Positions 1 to 13,381 are shown, counted from the stretch's first letter. The stretch is 17,766 nucleotides of DNA from Promethearchaeota archaeon (GCA_048938295.1 JBHLMI010000023.1:28790-46555); one strand, 5' to 3'. A program made the numbers and translations. The notes: generated from the sequence alone by a model not told the origin.

Positions 1-6
1 AAGTTC

Positions 7-903
7 ATGGAACCTAAAATCGTCATCGATGCTCATACGCGTCACACCACTAGAGTCCTGTTTTCACCGGATAACACCGTTTTACTATCCGCTGGGCAGG
101 ATAACCTAATTCACGCATGGACAGTTCAGGAGTGGACGCAACAACACACGTTTTTTGGCCACACAAACAGTGTCAACGCTATAGCACTCACTCCCGCTAT
201 GGATTTCTTGATCACGGGATCAACTGATAACACCGTGAAGGTATGGAACTATCATTCTGGGGACGTTGAATATACGCTTAGTGGACATAAAAAAACCGTC
301 GCGACAGTAGCCGTGTCTCCGTCTGGTGAATTTATCGCTTCAGGATCTTATGATGGCGAAGTAAAAATCTGGAACCTCAACACAGGTGCAGAACTCTTAA
401 CTTTGCCACAAATTGGTCGCAATGTTGGATCCGTTGATTTTTCCCCAGATGGTAACTACCTAGTAGGTGGAGGTCTTGGAAATGATATTTACCTCTGGGC
501 CTTCCCCTCAGGTGAACTCATCAAGCAAATCCATGGGCACGAAACAGCTGTCAATTCCGTACGATTCTCACCAAACGGTGAATTCCTTGGTTCACTTGGG
601 TATGAACAGACGCTGATAATTCGGAATACAAAGAACTGGGAGCAAGTTCATTCACTGAAATTAGAATCTCGGGGTATGGATCTAACCTTCACAGCGGATA
701 GTAAAAAAGTTGTAGCAGCAATTGATTATGGAGTGCGGATGTGGAACCTTCGGACCGGTGAAATCGATAAGCAGTTCGAATTACCGGTAAAGGGGGTTTA
801 TGCAGTGGATGTATCTCCCACGCGGCGATGGTTAGCTGTTGGTTCAGCCGACGGTAAAGTTCGAATTTGGGAAATTCGTGGAACTCGTCAAAAATCTGAA
901 TAA
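7..903 (+). CDS. WD40-repeat beta-propeller protein (about 7 blades, stand-alone)
   Basis: 298 aa with recurring GH...S.D..V++W units (GHTNSV...TGSTDNTVKVW; GHKKTV...SGSYDGEVKIW; GHETAV...; VGSADGKVRIW). No other domain is evident. Confidence 0.95.
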   Translation: MEPKIVIDAHTRHTTRVLFSPDNTVLLSAGQDNLIHAWTVQEWTQQHTFFGHTNSVNAIALTPAMDFLITGSTDNTVKVWNYHSGDVEYTLSGHKKTVATVAVSPSGEFIASGSYDGEVKIWNLNTGAELLTLPQIGRNVGSVDFSPDGNYLVGGGLGNDIYLWAFPSGELIKQIHGHETAVNSVRFSPNGEFLGSLGYEQTLIIRNTKNWEQVHSLKLESRGMDLTFTADSKKVVAAIDYGVRMWNLRTGEIDKQFELPVKGVYAVDVSPTRRWLAVGSADGKVRIWEIRGTRQKSE

Positions 904-1219: not shown

Positions 1220-2395
1220 CTATTCTAAGACTTGGGTTATAGCTGATCGTACATCTGTCCAGCTAAGGGCAACAAGGATAGAGAATCCTACGTAAGAAGC
1301 ACCAAACCACCGCCATATAGCATAATCAATCCAATACAAGGCAAAATCATTCATATGGTTGGTGGCTGCAAAGATAACGGGAATAAGCCAAAGCACAAGT
1401 GCGAGACAAAGAAGTGGAATCGGAGGGCGTACCTGCTTTCGAATTACTCTGAAAAACCACCAACTGATAGTTCCCCAGACAAGGATCATTTGGACCACTA
1501 AAATTATGGTGAAGAAGTGCAGTGGCAGAAAAGCAGGCACAGGATTCGAAGGATAGTAGCCTTGGAAGGTAGCCGGAGCTATGACATTGTAGTAAATAAT
1601 GCCAAACCCAAACCAAAGAAATCCTGCAAGATTGGCGAAGAACTCAGGCAGGCTCGCTGCCAACATCATCGAGGGGTCAGGAATGGGCTGAGCAATGACT
1701 GTATGAGCCAAGTAGAGTCCAACTGCCCCAGCGAATATTAGAATGACGATTCCGACGCTCCTCCACTGATGCCGCAATATGAAGAAGATGAGAATCGCAG
1801 GGAGGGCAAACAGAAATGTTTCCTTGATGAGGAAGGCGATGGCGATGAATCCTCCGGCCAACAATGGTCGATCAGTCCATGTCCAATAAACAGCTAATAT
1901 CATGAAGGGCATTGCAAACAGGGCAATCTGAAAAAGAGGAATGACATTGAAAAAGAACGCATACTGAATGAAAGTCGCTGCTAAGGCTGCCCAACCTGAT
2001 CCAGTGATGGACCGCACAACTAAAAACGTAAGAACTAGGTTAAGCATTGCCACAAGGACACAAAGAACACTGAGCGGAAAAATAAAGCTGGGTCCTGCCC
2101 ATCCCGTTAAGAAGACTACAGGATAAAAGATCAAAGGTGTCCGATAAATCCGCAAATCCCCCAAGTCTCCTGTGACTAACGCGGCATGCCGCCATGCTGT
2201 ATAGAAGTCCTCTCCATGCAGCATATAATAAATGACGGTTTTATGCATTGTATCATCATCTAATGCAAGACGAGGAACAAAGTCAATACCCCACGAATAT
2301 GATAGAAAGATTACCCACACAATACTACAAAATGCCAAGAAAACAACGAAAGCTGCGACACCTTCATAACGGAGAAGTTCTCGTAAGGACGGCAC
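1220..2395 (-). CDS. Polytopic membrane protein, probable GT-C-fold (lipid-linked sugar donor) glycosyltransferase
   Basis: 391 aa, about 10 hydrophobic helices. Acidic DDD in the loop after TM1, an R.Y..P motif, and a later 'IAFLIKETFLFALP' (K-containing helix typical of GT87/PMT-like proteins). GTG start with AGGTGA RBS upstream. Confidence 0.55.
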   Translation of the reverse strand: MPSLRELLRYEGVAAFVVFLAFCSIVWVIFLSYSWGIDFVPRLALDDDTMHKTVIYYMLHGEDFYTAWRHAALVTGDLGDLRIYRTPLIFYPVVFLTGWAGPSFIFPLSVLCVLVAMLNLVLTFLVVRSITGSGWAALAATFIQYAFFFNVIPLFQIALFAMPFMILAVYWTWTDRPLLAGGFIAIAFLIKETFLFALPAILIFFILRHQWRSVGIVILIFAGAVGLYLAHTVIAQPIPDPSMMLAASLPEFFANLAGFLWFGFGIIYYNVIAPATFQGYYPSNPVPAFLPLHFFTIILVVQMILVWGTISWWFFRVIRKQVRPPIPLLCLALVLWLIPVIFAATNHMNDFALYWIDYAIWRWFGASYVGFSILVALSWTDVRSAITQVLE

Positions 2396-2519
2396 GAAAA
2401 AGGGTCACCTAACCCAAACTATCATTCTCCTCTAATTGTTCAGTAGTTATTCAAAAGACTTCACTTTAGCTAGCATTACATGTGCGCACAATGGGAGCAA
2501 CCGGTTACGTGTCAGCACC

Positions 2520-2825
2520 TCATTCAGTGCAACACTTACGCGCTAGCTGGCAGATACTGCACACGCCTTTGGTGATCTGCTCTTCTGAAAGAGAGCCAGT
2601 ACTGATTTTTTTCGCCAGATCATCAACCGTCTCTTGGACATGTCGGTCCAACACAACGGAGGAACCCCTTTCACCTTTCATATAATGAGAGATGGTGGCC
2701 TCTGTGGTCCCTAAAACTTTGGAGACCTGGACTTGGGTCATTCCCCCTTTAACTAGCGCTCGTGCTAACGCCGACTTGATCGCTGGCAGCGCTTTCCATA
2801 CCACATTTTCACAAGGAAAAGCCAT
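2520..2825 (-). CDS. Archaeal XRE-type HTH transcriptional regulator (COG2522-like), Cys-rich
   Basis: N-terminal PCE motif, HTH 'MTQVQVSKVLGTTEATISHYMKGERG', C-terminal CSIC and CC. The ATG at 2825 is 8 nt after GGAGG, so it is preferred over the TTG at 2831. Confidence 0.8.
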   Translation of the reverse strand: MAFPCENVVWKALPAIKSALARALVKGGMTQVQVSKVLGTTEATISHYMKGERGSSVVLDRHVQETVDDLAKKISTGSLSEEQITKGVCSICQLARKCCTE

Positions 2826-2858
2826 ATCCAAGACCTCCGTATCCGCTAAGGATTCATA

Positions 2859-2901
2859 TTAACATTGTTAAGTCTTGCTTATGATATCTAATTTAAGTCT
2901 T
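2859..2901. promoter_or_regulatory. Candidate operator: TTAACA-T-TGTTAA palindrome plus TTAAGTCTT direct repeat
   Basis: Perfect 6-1-6 inverted repeat at 2859-2871. 9-bp direct repeats at 2868-2876 and 2893-2901. Located in the divergent promoter region between the HTH gene and the desulfurase gene. Confidence 0.4.
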
Positions 2902-3049
2902 AGGCACTCACTAATCCCCTTATCCCATTAGTTTTTCACCTATTCTGTATGTGGAAGAAAGGCAACACTACCATGAATGTTTTCAAGGATAAGCTCAATT
3001 AGGTCAGATATTATAGTGATTATTAGGATGTATTTTCTGGAGGACTTGT

Positions 3050-4324
3050 ATGAAACCTGAAGATATGCGCCGGGATCTACCCATCACACAGCAGTACATC
3101 TATTTTGACAATGCTGCCACGACTCCAGTTCCAAACCCAGTCATCGATGCAATGATTGAGTACTTCGAGGAGTATTGTGCGAATGTGGAAAGGGGAGCTT
3201 ACTCCATTGCTGCTAAAGCCTCAGACATGTGTGATGCCGCACGAGAGGAAATCGCAACCAATCTCTTGCATTGTGATGCTGAAGAGTTCATCTTCACCAG
3301 AAATCAAACCGAAGCTGCAAACCATGTTGCTTACGCCTTAGAACATCCATTCCTCAATCGATGGAGCACCGGTTTCAAATTCTCACCCCCCTTGGTGAAG
3401 TGGACCCCAGAAAGCACAATCCTAACTACGCTCATTGAACACCATTCGAATTTCATGCCTTGGATGCGGTTAGCAAAACACGTGAATGCGCAATTCCACA
3501 CTATCACCCCAACAATGGAAGGACGCCTAACACCAGATATGTTTACAGAGGCAGTGGATGAAAATACAAAGCTTGTAGCGTTTCAACATGCCTCCAATGC
3601 TATGGGCACCAAACATGATGTTCATGCCATCATTCGTGCCATAAAGTCCGCTAATCCAAGTTGCCTTGTATTTATTGATGGGGCACAAGGTGCAGGGCAT
3701 TTGCCTGTTAATGTCAAAGCACTAGGATGCGATTTCTACTCCTTCTCAGGTCATAAGGGTCCACTCGGACCACCGGGAACCGGAGGATTGTACGCTCGAG
3801 ATGAATTGCTACGGCGAATGGCACCGGCAGAGGTGGGCGGTGGCGTTATTGCCTCGGTGACTGCAGACGATTACATGCTGCGGAGTGATCACCGTGCTCG
3901 ACGCTGGGATGCGGGTACTCCAAATATCATCGGGTTAATTGCCCTGGGTGCAGCAGTCAAGTATCTGAATCGTTTTGGTATTGAAAGGATTGCAGAACAC
4001 GAACATAAACTGACAGAGCATCTTCTTGAGGGCATCCGAGACATCCCTAATGTAATTGTCTATGGTCCAAAGGAGGATATGACATGGAAAGTGGGGGCTG
4101 TCTGCTTCAACATCAAAGGCTGGGTTTCACATGATGTTAGCCTAGCGCTAGATTCCCAGTGGAAGATCTTGACCCGTGCCGGACACCATTGTTGTCAACC
4201 CCTCATGCGACTTCTCGATATCCTTGATCAGTATGGTGGCAATGTCCGCTCCAGCTTTCACTATTACAACCTGATTGAGGAAGTTGATACCCTGATTGAA
4301 GCTGTCAAAACTTTGGCAGGTTAG
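3050..4324 (+). CDS. sufS: Class II (SufS/CsdA-type) PLP-dependent cysteine desulfurase
   Basis: YFDNAATT, EHHSN, IDGAQ, PLP-lysine motif SGHKGPLGPPGTGGLY, class II catalytic motif RAGHHC. GGAGG RBS 6 nt before the ATG. Confidence 0.9.
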   Translation: MKPEDMRRDLPITQQYIYFDNAATTPVPNPVIDAMIEYFEEYCANVERGAYSIAAKASDMCDAAREEIATNLLHCDAEEFIFTRNQTEAANHVAYALEHPFLNRWSTGFKFSPPLVKWTPESTILTTLIEHHSNFMPWMRLAKHVNAQFHTITPTMEGRLTPDMFTEAVDENTKLVAFQHASNAMGTKHDVHAIIRAIKSANPSCLVFIDGAQGAGHLPVNVKALGCDFYSFSGHKGPLGPPGTGGLYARDELLRRMAPAEVGGGVIASVTADDYMLRSDHRARRWDAGTPNIIGLIALGAAVKYLNRFGIERIAEHEHKLTEHLLEGIRDIPNVIVYGPKEDMTWKVGAVCFNIKGWVSHDVSLALDSQWKILTRAGHHCCQPLMRLLDILDQYGGNVRSSFHYYNLIEEVDTLIEAVKTLAG

Positions 4325-4326
4325 AG

Positions 4327-5079
4327 TCACTTAGGTGCTTGACATTCTCCACAAACAGGACAGTCATTGTGACGTGCGATTTGAAATTGATCAAACCTGA
4401 GCTCATTTAGGTCAATGAAAAGGATGTTCCCCGCCAGACGAGGAGCTAATCCTAGGATGAGGTAAAGCGCTTCATGGACTTGGATATTCGCCACTACTCC
4501 GAGCAACGTTGGGTACACTCCGATTGTTTCACATGTGGGTTGTTGGGCATCATCAACACCACCGTAGATGCATTCTAAACAGGCAGTTTTACCAGGAATA
4601 ATGGTTGTAATGTTCCCTGTGGCCCCTAATGCTCCAGCGAACACGTAAGGAATCCCTTGTCTGCAGCAGGCCTGGTTAAGTAGGTAGCGTGGGGCAAATC
4701 GATCGAGCCCATCTACAACAAGGTCGACGCCTTTAATGAATTCATCAACAGTATTTGCGGTTAGTCGTTGTTCAATTGGTTCGATCCTCACACTTGGATT
4801 AAGTGGTTGCAAGCGACGGGCTGCCAGATGCACCTTAGGGGCACCCACATCTTTATCACTGTAGAGAAACTGACGCTGAAGATTTGTAACATCAACCGTA
4901 TCAGGATCAATCATCCGAAGGAGCTTAACACCCAGTGTAACCAGCTTAGTGGAAGATATACTGCCCAACCCTCCGATACCGATAACGGCAACTTTGGCAT
5001 TCCGGATTTTCTGGAATCCCTTGGGTCCAATATCACGAAGTACGATAAATCGAGAATACCGGTCGGGAATTTTTGGCAT
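4327..5079 (-). CDS. ThiF/MoeB/UbaA-family E1-like adenylyltransferase
   Basis: GIGGLGS nucleotide loop, D.DTVDVTNLQRQ, DGLD...RY..N, Zn ligands CLEC and CPVC, active-site Cys in PTCETIG. GAGGAGG RBS. No rhodanese domain. Confidence 0.92.
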   Translation of the reverse strand: MPKIPDRYSRFIVLRDIGPKGFQKIRNAKVAVIGIGGLGSISSTKLVTLGVKLLRMIDPDTVDVTNLQRQFLYSDKDVGAPKVHLAARRLQPLNPSVRIEPIEQRLTANTVDEFIKGVDLVVDGLDRFAPRYLLNQACCRQGIPYVFAGALGATGNITTIIPGKTACLECIYGGVDDAQQPTCETIGVYPTLLGVVANIQVHEALYLILGLAPRLAGNILFIDLNELRFDQFQIARHNDCPVCGECQAPK

Positions 5080-5099
5080 AAAAGCCTCCTCAAATAGGG

Positions 5100-6611
5100 T
5101 TAGAGGGCTGCCATTTGTTTTGCCTCTTCAAAAAGCTGTCGACCTTTCTTGCTGACCTCAACATTGGCTGAAGGTAATCCACGTCCCGCTGTACGGTGGA
5201 TGGTAACTAGCTCTTCTTCTTGGAGGTCGAGGAAGAATTTGTCAAGCCAAGCAGCTAGGGAAATGCCTAAGGATGGACTGAATCCAAGGTCCTTAGCTGA
5301 AACGTTGTATTTGCCTTCTACTATTTTCGTAGCAAATGTAGTCAGTACGATGTAGTGCTGATCCTTTTTGAGTAAGATATCCTGTATTCTGCTCCGCGCC
5401 TCCAATGCTTGCAACCGGTCTCGAACCTCAGCGAATCGTGCATATTCCTCTTTCATCTTCTCAATTTCTGCCAGAGCTTTTTCGAGTTGTTTCTCTAAAT
5501 CTTCCTTTTCCTTACTGAGTGCATCGCGGTCTTTGGATACTCCCTTTAGGCCTTTTTGCTGTTCTTCGAGGTCAGTAATTTTGGCTTCGTGTGCTTCTTT
5601 CAGGCTAGTCATTTCTTGCAGTCGAATCTCCAGATCTGCGATTTGTTTGTTCGCTTTAGCAGTTTCAGTTCTGGCTACTTTCAATTCATCTTGGACAGTT
5701 ACTAATTTCTCTGTATCTAATTCGGCTTGAGCTTTCACTTTGTCCAGTTTTGTGATAGATTGTTTAAGCTCAACAACCTGTTGATCTGCGGTTTCTAACT
5801 TCGCTTCTGATGCTTGTAGCTTCTGACCCTGCTCCTGGAATTGCTTTTCAAGCGTGTCTTTTGCTTCCTGAGTCTTCTGAAGCTCCGATTTCAGTGAACT
5901 GATTTCTTCTTCAAGCTTCTTCTTTGAAGCGGTTGCTGCTGCCGCAGCTGTAGCCGCAGCGGCTGTGGCTGCAGCTAGCTTCGTATTCAATTCGTCGATC
6001 TGCTTGACAGCGGCTTCACGTTCACTAAGTGCTTCCTTGCTCTCCTCTTGAATCTTGAGTAATTCGGCTTCAGCTTGTTTCAGGGATTCGGATAACTGCT
6101 TGTTGGTTTCTTGGAGCTTATCGATTCGTCGTGCATCACGAGTTGAGCGTGACTGCATTTGCTTCTCTAAATCAGCAATCTTAACCTTAGCATCGGCTAA
6201 TTCTTTCTCCAGTTCTTCTCGAGTCTTCTGTGATGCAGCGATTTCCTCGCTTAGCCGTTTCCGAAGCTCCTCACGCTCCGCTTCAGTCATTGAAGCTAAT
6301 GCACCTAATTCATCAGCTGCACCTGAGAGTCCGGCTTTGGCTTGTGTGATCTCCTGAATCTTGGCCCTGGCCTGTTCGCTGAACCGTTTCGACTCTGAGG
6401 TAACACCGTCTCGCACATCGTTGACGATTGGTCCACTCAGACGTCCAAAACCGATCTGTTCCATTCGTTGTTCCACACGGTCTGCAATCATCATTAGGCT
6501 ACGCTGGAGATCTCTAACCAGCACATCAATCGCATCGACAAGACTTGTGGTCAAAGCTTCAATTTGGCGTTTGAGTACTTCCGAACGTTGGCTTGGAGCT
6601 TCTTGCGTCAT
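5100..6611 (-). CDS. Long coiled-coil protein with an N-terminal helical domain and a probable C-terminal winged-helix domain
   Basis: 503 aa. Residues ~110-410 are E/K/Q/L-rich heptads interrupted by AAATAAAATAAAAATA. The C-terminal ~85 aa end in 'LQEEELVTIH...VEVSKKGRQLFEE', resembling a wHTH wing (L..GLV....lT.KG). No Walker A motif. AGGTGG RBS. Confidence 0.75.
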   Translation of the reverse strand: MTQEAPSQRSEVLKRQIEALTTSLVDAIDVLVRDLQRSLMMIADRVEQRMEQIGFGRLSGPIVNDVRDGVTSESKRFSEQARAKIQEITQAKAGLSGAADELGALASMTEAEREELRKRLSEEIAASQKTREELEKELADAKVKIADLEKQMQSRSTRDARRIDKLQETNKQLSESLKQAEAELLKIQEESKEALSEREAAVKQIDELNTKLAAATAAAATAAAAATASKKKLEEEISSLKSELQKTQEAKDTLEKQFQEQGQKLQASEAKLETADQQVVELKQSITKLDKVKAQAELDTEKLVTVQDELKVARTETAKANKQIADLEIRLQEMTSLKEAHEAKITDLEEQQKGLKGVSKDRDALSKEKEDLEKQLEKALAEIEKMKEEYARFAEVRDRLQALEARSRIQDILLKKDQHYIVLTTFATKIVEGKYNVSAKDLGFSPSLGISLAAWLDKFFLDLQEEELVTIHRTAGRGLPSANVEVSKKGRQLFEEAKQMAAL

Positions 6612-6794
6612 TTAACCACCTTTTTATGAACCCTTCTAGCCCTAGTTGAGCTATTGAACCTAGATAAGGTTTGCTGCGAATTGGTAAAAACTCGCTTTCT
6701 AGCTAAAACCTACGCGGTTTTCCGATTTCGAGAAACCATAGCTTTTAAAGGTAATCTTCGTATCGATTCCTCAATCAATAAAGAAGTGGTTGCT

Positions 6795-7154
6795 ATGGAA
6801 ACTGAAGATGTGTTGCAGGTTCTCCGGCGGGTCCTTGATCCTGAACACCCAGTAAACGTTGTCGAAATGGGTCTTGTCACAGAAGAAGACATTACCATCA
6901 ACGGTGATGAAATCCACATCCAATTTACTCCCACTGTTCCTCAATGCCCCATGGGTGCAGTGATTGGCATTATAATTCGGAAAGCGGTGGAAGATGAATT
7001 TCCTAAGAACAAAGTCTCTGTTCAGGTTAAACCTGGCACCCACATGCGAGAAGACGCCTGCAATTCGATGATCAACAATGATGACCAATATTATTCTGCC
7101 ATCGAGAAGCTCAATGCCTCAGGAGCTCTCGATCGACTAATTCTCAAAGAATAA
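6795..7154 (+). CDS. DUF59/MIP18-family Fe-S assembly protein, CIA2 (FAM96)-like
   Basis: DPEHP, FTPTVPQCPMGAVIGIIIR, KVSVQVKPGTH..E...N. The ATG at 6795 is preferred: the ORF-track extension from 6654 is non-conserved sequence containing a TTTAAA box at ~6754-6759. Confidence 0.85.
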   Translation: METEDVLQVLRRVLDPEHPVNVVEMGLVTEEDITINGDEIHIQFTPTVPQCPMGAVIGIIIRKAVEDEFPKNKVSVQVKPGTHMREDACNSMINNDDQYYSAIEKLNASGALDRLILKE

Positions 7155-12543: not shown

Positions 12544-12769
12544 TTAAGTTACCCTCTTTGCTACGAGTTATTACCCGTTAAGGATTGAGGATAGAGATAA
12601 GACTTGTGCCCGATGTACTTCCGTAAAAAACAGGATTTACATCTACATTGAGGAATAATGCTAACGGTTAAGTTGATTCTTTACCTATGTTGACTTGGAT
12701 TTTTCACATTGCTGAAACGGACTCTAATATCCAGTTGCATTAATAGTAATATTTATTCTAGACAGCTAG

Positions 12770-13255
12770 AGAACAGAAACTGAGGGAATACCAATTATAC
12801 TCACTTTACTCAGTGGAATTATAATCTTCTATGTCCTTTGGCGGAAAAAGAGTGGGAAGCTCTTTTTGTATGCAGTTACTGTTAGTGTGATGCTTCTTCT
12901 CGCACTGTGTGAAACGTGGCTCGTCACCATCTGGCAGCCCATCCCCGTGCGAATTGGCGACTGGCGGTACCTCATCGCCAATTGGTTCGCCTTTCCCTAC
13001 ACCGTATATTTTCGTCAAGATGAACAACTAATGATATTTGTCCAGCTTGGTGTAATCATTGCATTTGGGAATCTTCCATTGTTTCTCCTGGTATCTCCCC
13101 AAGTTGTTAGGTATTCGGCGGACATGGTGTTCTGGTTCGCCCAAATCCGAATGCTCGCCTTCTACATTATCTTCAGCTTTCACCTCATCGTCATCCTCGT
13201 TTTCCTGTTTATCGTCTTCAGTTTTGACCTTTTACACCATTATTTTTCAAAGTAG
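12770..13255 (+). pseudogene. Hydrophobic multi-pass membrane protein frame with no proper 5' start (possibly disrupted)
   Basis: The frame is open from 12770, after a TAG at 12767-12769, and encodes a TM-like helix (GIPIILTLLSGIIIFYVLWRKK) before the first TTG at 12866. There is no ATG/GTG in that stretch. Confidence 0.4.
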
Positions 13256-13381
13256 ATGTAAAGATAGTTACCCGTAGATATCAAATCTCGTAGCTGAACC
13301 GGTGTATTCAGATAGCTATGGCAAAGCTGGGAATGTACCTAAAAATTACCAAAACGATTTCTGGTAAGGATGCACCAGGGT

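Follow-up and report, generated by a model that had tools for sequence, protein, structure and literature searches.

The genome of the Asgard archaeon Hermodarchaeum was found to hold five genuine sulfur-handling genes side by side, at positions 2520–7154 of the stretch of DNA analyzed (17 766 nucleotides in all, here termed the window; Table 1). The reading preferred here, with moderate confidence, is that these genes form a loose, Hermodarchaeia-specific sulfur-trafficking neighbourhood around an E1 enzyme of the MoeB/ThiF type and constitute neither a single operon nor an invariant module. Of the new findings, the most useful concerns the putative regulator, whose conserved palindrome also marks Fe-S and cysteine genes of the cell. 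All five genes had been listed in a preliminary description of this DNA, and Pfam, NCBIfam and the translations located each of them there or close by; the starts of two were corrected. The HTH gene, first drawn as 2520–2831, starts at ATG 2825 as set by orthologue alignment, and the DUF59 gene was assigned to ATG 6795 because gene calls in relatives give 119 aa, the TTG at 6654 chosen earlier being too early.

Table 1. Features of the Hermodarchaeum locus, in window coordinates.
Feature	Position	Strand	Remarks
Membrane glycosyltransferase-like gene	1220..2395	-	weak GT87/PMT_2 matches
Cys-rich Xre-type HTH protein	2520..2825	-	HTH_3; 101 aa
Palindrome TTAACATTGTTAA, candidate operator	2859..2871	.	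34 nt upstream of HTH start codon
Type II (SufS/CsdA-like) cysteine desulfurase	3050..4324	+	Aminotran_5
Short MoeB/ThiF/UbaA-type E1 adenylyltransferase, 250 aa	4327..5079	-	ThiF
Coiled-coil protein with C-terminal winged helix, 503 aa	5100..6611	-	generic coiled-coil matches
CIA2/MIP18-type DUF59 protein, 119 aa	6795..7154	+	PF01883

The HTH and SufS genes are divergent and 218 bp apart, the SufS and E1 genes are convergent with their ends 2 bp apart, and the coiled-coil and DUF59 genes are divergent with a gap of ~180 bp. These pairs bear out the earlier view of a mixed-strand neighbourhood rather than one operon. The coiled-coil and E1 genes share a strand and, because the former lies only 20 nt upstream of the latter, their co-transcription is suggested. 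The dN/dS values of 0.04–0.10 for all five genes denote purifying selection, although dS was saturated. The glycosyltransferase-like gene is context and probably has no role in sulfur handling, since it follows the HTH gene by ~125–140 nt on the same strand in every Hermodarchaeial-family locus that has both.

The HTH protein scored 26.5 bits against HTH_3 (cut-off 23), and the five cysteines described for it were confirmed in the translation. Its orthologues are of 116 aa and carry a C-terminal CxxC-x6-CxxC-x9-CxxC pattern; in the source genome the gene is 3′-truncated by a TGA at a Cys codon followed by a frameshift, and the last two CxxC pairs are gone. A paralogue on contig C38 of the same genome bears a ThiN domain (PF10120, 8e-37) and has a homologous HTH half. 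Judged by sequence, the window protein is related to the DNA-binding half of this HTH+ThiN (ThiR-like) protein but stands alone. Archaeal ThiR has a C-terminal ThiN ligand-binding domain, whereas the 101 aa of the window protein comprise the HTH and a Cys tail without ThiN.

The palindrome TTAACA-N-TGTTAA was present once in the window against 0.07 sites expected, and four exact sites were found in the genome against 0.28 expected. Across 15 congeners, 47 sites were counted, compared with 8 for the reversed control. Its position was conserved before the DsrE-IscS-IscU genes in all six genomes examined and before the HTH gene in nine genomes, as it was before the cysteine synthase (CysK) gene and a 4Fe-4S protein gene. 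Where a helicase gene stands between HTH and SufS, the palindrome keeps with the HTH gene and not with SufS; no site was found near the E1, coiled-coil or DUF59 genes in the window or in the genome site search. The recurrence at DsrE-IscS-IscU, cysteine synthase and 4Fe-4S genes points to a putative sulfur/Fe-S regulon. Because the palindrome lies upstream of these genes and of the HTH gene itself, the HTH protein is likely the regulator of a sulfur/cysteine/Fe-S regulon, through predicted binding to the palindrome. By analogy only, IscR, SufR and CymR are likewise small DNA-binding proteins with a Cys cluster, and the palindrome here stands in the gene's own promoter and before iscSU and cysK. 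The HTH protein has no homology to IscR (Rrf2) or SufR, however, and its DNA binding and sensing are predictions.

The kinship with ThiR raises the question of whether the locus serves a thiamine (thiazole) sulfur pathway comprising a ThiF-type E1, a desulfurase and a ThiR-like regulator. Besides the ThiN-bearing paralogue, this is favoured by other Asgard lineages in which the SufS or HTH gene adjoins Thi4; in Jordarchaeia the HTH-Cys gene is near both Thi4 and a SufS-IscU-desulfurase cluster. The palindrome sites, however, are at Fe-S and cysteine genes and not at thiamine genes, and in the genome the ThiG match was unconvincing, with 27 bits over 54 aa, and Thi4 was not found. A thiamine role is thus regarded as highly improbable.

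The desulfurase matched Aminotran_5 with E = 4e-104 (348.9 bits). Its translation shows the PLP lysine in SGHK and the catalytic-loop Cys in GHHCC (RAGHHCCQP), and it has in common with SufS/CsdA the type II class V fold, the lysine and the GHHC loop. The closest solved relatives are of the SufS/CsdB type (PDB SufS relatives 1e-66 to 1e-90), headed by 5b7s, the Thermococcus onnurineus enzyme, at 5.8e-90. In contrast to SufS/CsdA, the enzyme falls under the TIGR01979 cut-off (362.9 against 475.1 bits), its gene stands tail to tail with an E1 gene, and the SufBC(D) scaffold with which SufS works, beside a SufE or SufU acceptor, was not recovered: in the 91.6%-complete genome there was no SufB/D (PF01458) and no SufC above cut-off, and the sole NifU_N-type gene found adjoins NifS/IscS. 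A tblastn search of the genome revealed no second copy of the type II desulfurase.

The E1 matched ThiF (PF00899) with E = 2e-71 (240.5 bits). It shares with the MoeB/ThiF/UbaA (SAMP-activating) E1s of arCOG1676 type the Rossmann ATP site (GxGGxG, within the GxGxxG consensus), the Arg finger, the Mg-binding Asp, the crossover-loop Cys and the four Zn cysteines in two CxxC pairs; the invariant columns are G34–G39, R69, D126, C167, C170, C240 and C243. The MoeB, ThiF and UbaA models were matched full-length at 1e-59 to 1e-64, with scores under the NCBIfam equivalog cut-offs in each case (217/449, 204/275 and 200/450 bits, respectively). What sets it apart from those E1s is the lack of an adjacent carrier gene and its status as a genus-specific duplicate. 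Trees placed it as a short paralogue specific to the genus. Its nearest Asgard relatives are of a long form (~350 aa) with an extra C-terminal domain of ~100 aa that has an invariant Cys and a TBP-like fold; the window E1 (250 aa) stops directly after the second CxxC and has no such domain. Its dN/dS is ~0.10. The short E1 has been lost in one congener (G007) and is fragmented in another (G014); it is a dispensable paralogue.

At the E. coli csd locus, too, a type II desulfurase has a ThiF-family protein as its partner. The pairing seen here, together with matches of CsdA models to the desulfurase at 3e-69, would fit a CsdA-CsdE-CsdL(TcdA)-like system for tRNA modification, such as that giving cyclic t6A. 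Here the TcdA match was limited to E1 residues 15–157 (4.8e-21), in contrast to the full-length MoeB/ThiF/UbaA matches, the E1 has the Zn tetracysteine of carrier-activating enzymes, and the Pfam scan of the window genes gave no acceptor of the SufE/CsdE family. A Csd-like system was judged highly improbable, as was the thiamine pathway.

As had been described, sufBCD, sufE/iscU, apbC and a ubiquitin-like (Ubl) carrier are absent from the window. The search of the rest of the genome that had been proposed found the carriers and a single Mrp/ApbC gene; SufBCD was not among its results. ThiS/MoaD-like carriers number five, GG-ended in four, and ThiF-family (E1) genes four, with no carrier gene adjoining any E1 of the genome. 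A NifS/IscS-IscU pair with DsrE lies on contig C50, and a TtuA/NcsA-like gene and ThiI are present. The 91.6%-complete genome yielded no MoaE and, with ThiG and Thi4 also missing, tRNA thiolation is the sole usual carrier-dependent pathway for which downstream enzymes were found. In the Thermus TtuA-TtuB-TtuC and Haloferax UbaA-SAMP-NcsA relays one E1 serves several Ubl sulfur carriers, cysteine desulfurases supply the sulfur, and the Fe-S-dependent TtuA/NcsA acts downstream (see also PMC2948915). The TtuA-like and ThiI genes make the Hermodarchaeum genome resemble these systems, but here the carriers and TtuA lie away from the E1 locus, and the known relays have no link to a CIA2-type protein or a Cys-rich HTH protein.

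In the preferred reading, the desulfurase would generate a persulfide and the E1 would adenylate MoaD/ThiS/SAMP-type carriers encoded elsewhere, the thiocarboxylates of which would feed thiolation reactions (TtuA/NcsA-like, ThiI). Fe-S clusters would be built by the NifS/IscS-IscU proteins encoded elsewhere, and the HTH protein would regulate the sulfur/cysteine/Fe-S regulon via the candidate operator. As a guess, the CIA2-type protein might deliver clusters to Fe-S-dependent thiolation enzymes or relay sulfur; the sole basis for this is that its gene recurs close to E1 in two Asgard classes.

Gene neighbourhoods were surveyed across 151 Asgard genomes. The complete five-gene order occurred in one family only, in two Hermodarchaeial genera, and beyond that family pairwise links alone recurred. 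Of the conserved module proposed earlier, the pairwise E1-DUF59, E1-HTH and HTH-SufS links stood, some of them in other classes, while full synteny beyond the family did not. Nor was the supposed conserved link of SufS to E1 or DUF59 upheld: it was Hermodarchaeial only, and absent elsewhere among the relatives searched. Collinearity extends over the whole window within the genus and over most of it in the sister genus. Unrelated neighbours (an FGGY kinase, the glycosyltransferase-like gene, a nitroreductase, DUF998 and HD genes) are kept just as well as the five genes, and the five-gene synteny is therefore weakly informative.

One interpretation of these data is that descent alone made these genes neighbours, each serving a pathway of its own, in an order inherited within a young family. 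Apart from the collinearity, this would account for the insertions that split HTH from SufS in 5 of the 13 loci with both genes and the coiled-coil gene from DUF59 in 2 of the 11 such loci of the source genus. It also fits the finding that, outside the family, orthologues of SufS (54% identity) and of E1 stand in unrelated contexts. In Thorarchaeia the E1 lies 1.7–2.1 kb from a CIA2-type DUF59 gene in 8 of the 16 genomes with that type of DUF59, in five genera, and these two genes alone were recovered there from the 16 window genes used as queries. Both belong to a gene block that is collinear throughout the class and whose other members are unrelated, with two opposite-strand genes between them, and in the remaining half of the genomes the block lacks E1; proximity inherited without shared function is therefore possible in this class. 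Against descent alone, the chance of two given genes lying <2 kb apart is ~0.1% in a ~3 Mb genome, and the E1-DUF59 proximity occurs in two classes with different intervening genes. Three further families moreover have the E1 and HTH-Cys genes together, with MoaE, TtuA and ThiI among the neighbours: E1, HTH-Cys and MoaE follow one another in 4/4 genomes of family f14, E1 is followed by HTH-Cys in 6/6 genomes of f18, and in f19 the order is HTH-Cys, TtuA-like and ThiI with E1 convergent. When SufS is counted as a neighbour as well, members of the Cys-rich HTH family adjoin such genes (E1, MoaE, TtuA, ThiI or SufS) in four further families. The palindrome, too, connects the HTH gene with Fe-S and cysteine genes. 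These observations support linkage of some gene pairs beyond chance, an example being the proximity of E1 to CIA2-type DUF59 in another Asgard class, and descent alone is considered unlikely.

The DUF59 protein, encoded by a single gene in the genome, matched FeS_assembly_P (PF01883) with E = 8e-15. Its designation as CIA2-like proved apt: phmmer aligned residues 5–114, near full length, with Drosophila galla-2/CIAO2B at 1.5e-19, and the same PDB search gave 5e-14 for FAM96A and 1.4e-5 for bacterial TM0487. By the E-values of that one search, eukaryotic CIA2 is a closer relative of the protein than are the bacterial and short archaeal DUF59 proteins (SufT/PaaD type). With eukaryotic CIA2/MIP18 proteins (CIAO2B/FAM96B, CIAO2A/FAM96A, galla-2) it has in common DPEHP, the reactive-Cys motif FTPT.P.CPM and the C-terminal extension PGTH..E..N, which also emerged from an alignment of long-type with short-type sequences. 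It differs from them in being a stand-alone protein of 119 aa with an E1 and a coiled-coil protein as neighbours. On these sequence grounds the protein is of CIA2 type, a kinship that is real but already published, Asgard derivation having been reported for both CIA1 and CIA2B (PMC12338589).

This kinship and the presence of DUF59 near E1 in two Asgard classes are what would favour reading the locus as a conserved module that combines the mobilisation of sulfur with Ubl thiocarboxylation and CIA-like cluster delivery and from which the eukaryotic CIA/Urm1 pathways descend, the precursor arrangement originally suggested as a possibility. Nothing specific to Urm1/Uba4 or to CIA1 and the CIA targeting complex was seen, however. 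In the 250-aa E1 Pfam found the ThiF domain and nothing else, thus no rhodanese family such as the Uba4 E1 is fused to, and the Uba4 match (1.8e-22) was weaker than those to ThiF (1.4e-41) and MoeB (2e-37). In the vicinity no gene for an Urm1-like carrier, Nbp35 or a CIA1-like protein was recognised. In the CIA targeting complex the partners are MMS19 and CIA1, a specific WD40 protein; a WD40 gene at window positions 1–903 gave generic matches (WDR5, Nostoc 2ymu), with CIAO1 absent among the top ones. Searches for the CIA2-type DUF59 were negative in f4 (14 genomes), f9 (25 genomes) and several further Asgard families. Given also the confinement of the five-gene order to one family, an ancestral module was judged very unlikely.

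For the coiled-coil protein, Pfam and NCBIfam returned generic coiled-coil matches and no specific family. Only 15 close homologues were present in a set of 5.8 billion proteins; the protein is restricted to the Hermodarchaeial family, in both genera of which its gene precedes E1. Its last 108 aa form a winged helix in the predicted structure (pLDDT 84).

The five genes named in the preliminary description, encoding an HTH regulator, a SufS-type desulfurase (SufS), an E1, a coiled-coil protein (CC) and a DUF59 protein, all proved real when profile matches were obtained and the translations were read. The window sits at a contig end in a genome of 2.52 Mb that is 91.6% complete, the nearest relatives of which are MAGs submitted under the names Candidatus Hermodarchaeota and Hermodarchaeum yapensis. 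The gene identities, their paralogy, the place of each adjacency, and the enrichment and conservation of a palindromic motif were all observed, and the favoured interpretation is a loose neighbourhood of sulfur-trafficking genes centred on an E1. The preliminary reading of a sulfur-relay/Fe-S island is supported in part; nothing specific lies behind its suggestion of a precursor of the eukaryotic CIA/Urm1 pathways.

The desulfurase is a type II enzyme with an SGHK lysine and a GHHCC loop, the best solved relatives being SufS/CsdB enzymes, and its score falls short of the SufS family cut-off. Assignment as an encapsulin-cargo desulfurase was rejected, as that match covers the catalytic domain only and the N-terminal targeting region is missing. 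The E1, of 250 aa and MoeB/ThiF/UbaA type, retains all catalytic and Zn motifs, and the 503-aa CC protein is predicted to form a coiled coil that ends in a winged helix. A set of 5.8 billion proteins yielded no more than about 15 close homologues of CC, and the winged helix of CC could not be equated with the small wHTH genes flanking E1 in two other Asgard families, f19 and f14 (hhalign probability <1%). The DUF59 gene had been given a start at 6654, and this was corrected to 6795. Its product clearly belongs with the eukaryotic CIA2/MIP18 proteins, matching galla-2/CIAO2B at 1.5e-19 over near full length, including the PGTH..E..N tail, with a bacterial DUF59 protein reaching 1.4e-5 only. Word-index protein searches with HTH, CC and DUF59 recovered close relatives alone. 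Complex prediction for the E1 and DUF59 proteins gave a score of 0.01, which is no verdict either way on binding. Scans of the window returned no Rfam or tRNA match, and the WD40 gene with which the window opens was dropped as a CIA1 candidate, its matches being generic WD40 proteins.

Orthologue alignment puts the start of the regulator, an HTH protein of the Xre type, at ATG 2825. Its N-terminal PCE cysteine is conserved, a cluster of Cys residues lies at the C-terminus, and the form seen in most congeners has 116 aa and ends CxxC-x6-CxxC-x9-CxxC. Here, a TGA stands in place of the second Cys codon in the middle CxxC pair and is followed by a frameshift, on account of which a selenocysteine reading of this codon was rejected; the last CxxC (CSHCAH) is still readable in another frame. 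The five cysteines previously ascribed to the regulator are present and are therefore a feature of a truncated copy, full orthologues having more CxxC pairs. A paralogue in the same genome bears a ThiN domain in a ThiR-like architecture.

The palindrome TTAACATTGTTAA precedes the HTH start by 34 nt, as one window site against 0.07 expected, and exact TTAACA-N-TGTTAA sites number four in the genome, where 0.28 would be expected (Table). One-mismatch palindromes lie 14 nt before the gene for a 231-aa 4Fe-4S protein and next to a gene judged ferritin-like by its N-terminal sequence. Across 15 congeners 47 sites were counted, against 8 with a reversed control. Orthologous sites were located at the HTH gene (nine genomes), before DsrE-IscS-IscU (6/6 genomes examined), at CysK (three genomes), at the 4Fe-4S protein (three genomes, plus a one-mismatch site) and at a second DsrE paralogue (two genomes). 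Where a helicase parts the HTH gene from SufS, the palindrome remains with the HTH gene; none was seen near E1, CC or DUF59. From the position of the palindrome in the HTH gene's own promoter we infer that the HTH protein binds it, and it would then control Fe-S/cysteine genes. If the palindrome is the HTH operator, DsrE-IscS-IscU, cysteine synthase, the 4Fe-4S protein and the regulator itself would constitute a testable regulon of one Asgard lineage. The palindrome beside the bacteriorhodopsin-like gene keeps its position in two congeners, and a rhodopsin gene near the motif was unexpected.

Features located in the window, elsewhere in the same genome (contigs C50, C56 and C63) and in fetched loci of relatives (L numbers)
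Feature	Location	Strand	Remarks
Palindrome site 1	window 2859-2871		before HTH gene and SufS
Palindrome site 2	C50:48676		between 133-aa gene and DsrE-NifS/IscS-IscU operon; 294 nt upstream of DsrE-like gene
Palindrome site 3			46 nt before cysteine synthase (TIGR01136, 353.8 bits vs 344.15 cut-off)
Palindrome site 4	C63:1382		spacer of bacteriorhodopsin-like gene (PF01036, 84 bits) and peroxiredoxin gene
Degraded 3' end of HTH gene	window 2440-2525	-	TGA at CxxC Cys and frameshift relative to orthologues
DsrE-NifS/IscS-IscU operon	C50:46349-48382		DsrE-like gene first
Ordinary long-form E1	C56:20710-21759
Extra C-terminal domain of ordinary E1	L036:6903-7211	+	alignment A6
Inserted helicase-like gene	L007:7116-8876, L008:7119-8888, L009:7075-8874, L014:10346-11833		between HTH gene and SufS
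Two genes between E1 and DUF59	L079:5257-6863 (Thorarchaeota); equivalents L089-L096		neither matches Pfam
Stretch in DUF998-HD gap	window 12618-13279		candidate non-coding element or exchanged piece

The partners of such a system were sought elsewhere in the genome, as the preliminary description had proposed, and carriers, Mrp/ApbC and IscU were located there and SufBCD was not: at 91.6% completeness, no SufB/D core was found and no SufC scored above cut-off. Fe-S assembly is covered by the DsrE-NifS/IscS-IscU operon and, because SufBCD was not found, the lineage apparently depends on a DsrE-type sulfur relay protein and a minimal ISC-type system. The inventory further comprises one Mrp/ApbC gene, a single DUF59 gene, four ThiF-family genes, five ThiS/MoaD-like carriers (four with a GG end), a TtuA/NcsA-like gene and ThiI, with MoaE, ThiG and Thi4 not found in the same 91.6% complete genome. 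None of the five carriers is next to an E1; several (on contigs C61 and C8) adjoin genes that we take, from their N-terminal sequences, to be aldehyde:ferredoxin oxidoreductase-like.

The region around the SufS orthologue was compared in 30 relatives. Within the genus the entire window is collinear, from the WD40 gene through the HD gene, and the keeping of the five genes there is therefore uninformative. The sister genus keeps glycosyltransferase-HTH-SufS-E1-CC, and an unrelated FGGY kinase too; DUF59 adjoins CC in one of its genomes, and no DUF59 was found in the remaining three. HTH and SufS are split in four congeners by a helicase-like gene (495-600 aa, LLPTGMGKT motif) that is missing from the present genome and the sister genus, and in one genome by an 830-aa gene; CC and DUF59 are split by a 509-aa membrane gene in two. 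The glycosyltransferase-like gene comes after the HTH gene in every locus holding both. For three of the relatives (G010, G002 and G003) DNA search met assembly gaps or divergence at the region.

In phylogenetic trees the window E1 groups with other short (~250 aa) copies, in a clade that is confined to the genus and has a long stem. The lineage's usual E1 has ~350 aa and an additional C-terminal domain, and in the sister genus it is this long form that adjoins SufS and CC. The extra domain of ~100 aa is predicted to fold like half of a TBP (pLDDT 87; TM 0.53-0.56 to M. jannaschii TBP), language-model look-up of it gave uninformative scores of <0.9, and its one invariant Cys is a possible carrier of persulfide or acyl groups. 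It was lost independently in Hermod and Thor copies near CIA2-type DUF59. The short E1 is absent in one relative (G007) and fragmented in another (G014), and intact copies are under purifying selection, which is as much as dN/dS resolves because dS is saturated. Separately, the E1 on contig G017:C282 (L045), binned with the sister genus, was almost identical to that of L037 (G002:C9) from this genus, with branch lengths of ~0.02, which suggests that this contig may be mis-binned.

Outside the family, no SufS orthologue directly adjoins E1, CC, DUF59 or HTH; the SufS neighbours in other Asgard lineages are IscU plus another desulfurase, SufC/SufB-like genes, or Thi4 plus NadA. CIA2-type DUF59 occurs in eight families among 151 Asgard genomes. 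In Thorarchaeia an orthologous E1 stands 1.7-2.1 kb from DUF59 in 8/16 genomes with CIA2-type DUF59, and these eight span five genera. The block is collinear throughout the class and runs aminotransferase, DUF362, E1, acidic disordered protein, 150-aa protein, DUF59, Zn-ribbon membrane protein, GNAT and a 1300-aa TrmB/helical protein. The first intervening gene encodes 270-450 aa, of which an N-terminal domain of 75 aa is conserved; the protein also has a long region of acidic disorder and a C-terminal PPPPP...RRARRLFFG motif. The second product opens with a degenerate P-loop-like FKITVVGPDD. The E1 and DUF59 were the sole matches at these loci among 16 window genes queried; the other block genes were found in the present genome on other contigs or not at all, and none in the window. 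As in Hermodarchaeia, the block E1 is long or short by genus, and two genomes with a short one (G052 and G080) carry a second, long E1 elsewhere. A further link joins E1 to the Cys-bearing HTH gene (HTH-Cys): E1, HTH-Cys and MoaE follow one another in 4/4 genomes of f14, E1 and HTH-Cys in 6/6 of a third family (f18), and in an f19 genome HTH-Cys precedes a TtuA-like gene and ThiI, with E1 convergent. In Jordarchaeia, HTH-Cys is near Thi4 and a SufS-IscU cluster.

To our knowledge, the regulation of Fe-S assembly and sulfur trafficking in archaea is poorly understood, as is the sulfur source of archaeal Ubl thiocarboxylates. In the present region the desulfurase would feed E1-dependent thiocarboxylation of carriers, and the CIA2-type protein, going by gene proximity only, may serve Fe-S-dependent thiolation enzymes. 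The latter role would be in line with yeast, where Urm1-dependent tRNA thiolation requires Cfd1, Nbp35 and Cia1 (PMC5372729). The recurrence of a CIA2-type protein near a carrier-activating E1 offers a concrete and cheap hypothesis for the role of the archaeal CIA2 forerunner; it lends no support to a proto-CIA/Urm1 module as such. A broader reading, improbable when taken as a whole, would have the HTH protein be an Asgard-wide Fe-S/Zn-cluster sensor-regulator of sulfur trafficking, ruling Fe-S assembly, cysteine synthesis and Ubl-thiocarboxylate pathways via TTAACA-N-TGTTAA-type operators, and the CIA2-type DUF59 partner E1-dependent thiolation, prefiguring the CIA dependence of Urm1 tRNA thiolation. 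The components each belong to known families, and the Asgard link of CIA2B is already published (PMC12338589). A limited literature search, which is no proof of novelty, found no description of E1 recurring near CIA2-type or HTH-Cys genes, of its parallel shortening or of the candidate regulon marked by the palindrome.

Finally, a gap of 840 bp separates the DUF998 gene from the HD gene, and a stretch within it showed 93% nucleotide identity to a different contig of the congener G003, with flanking genes matching at ~70% only. The stretch is single copy in its own genome, has no Rfam or tRNA match, and may represent a non-coding element that has been conserved or a segment that was exchanged recently.
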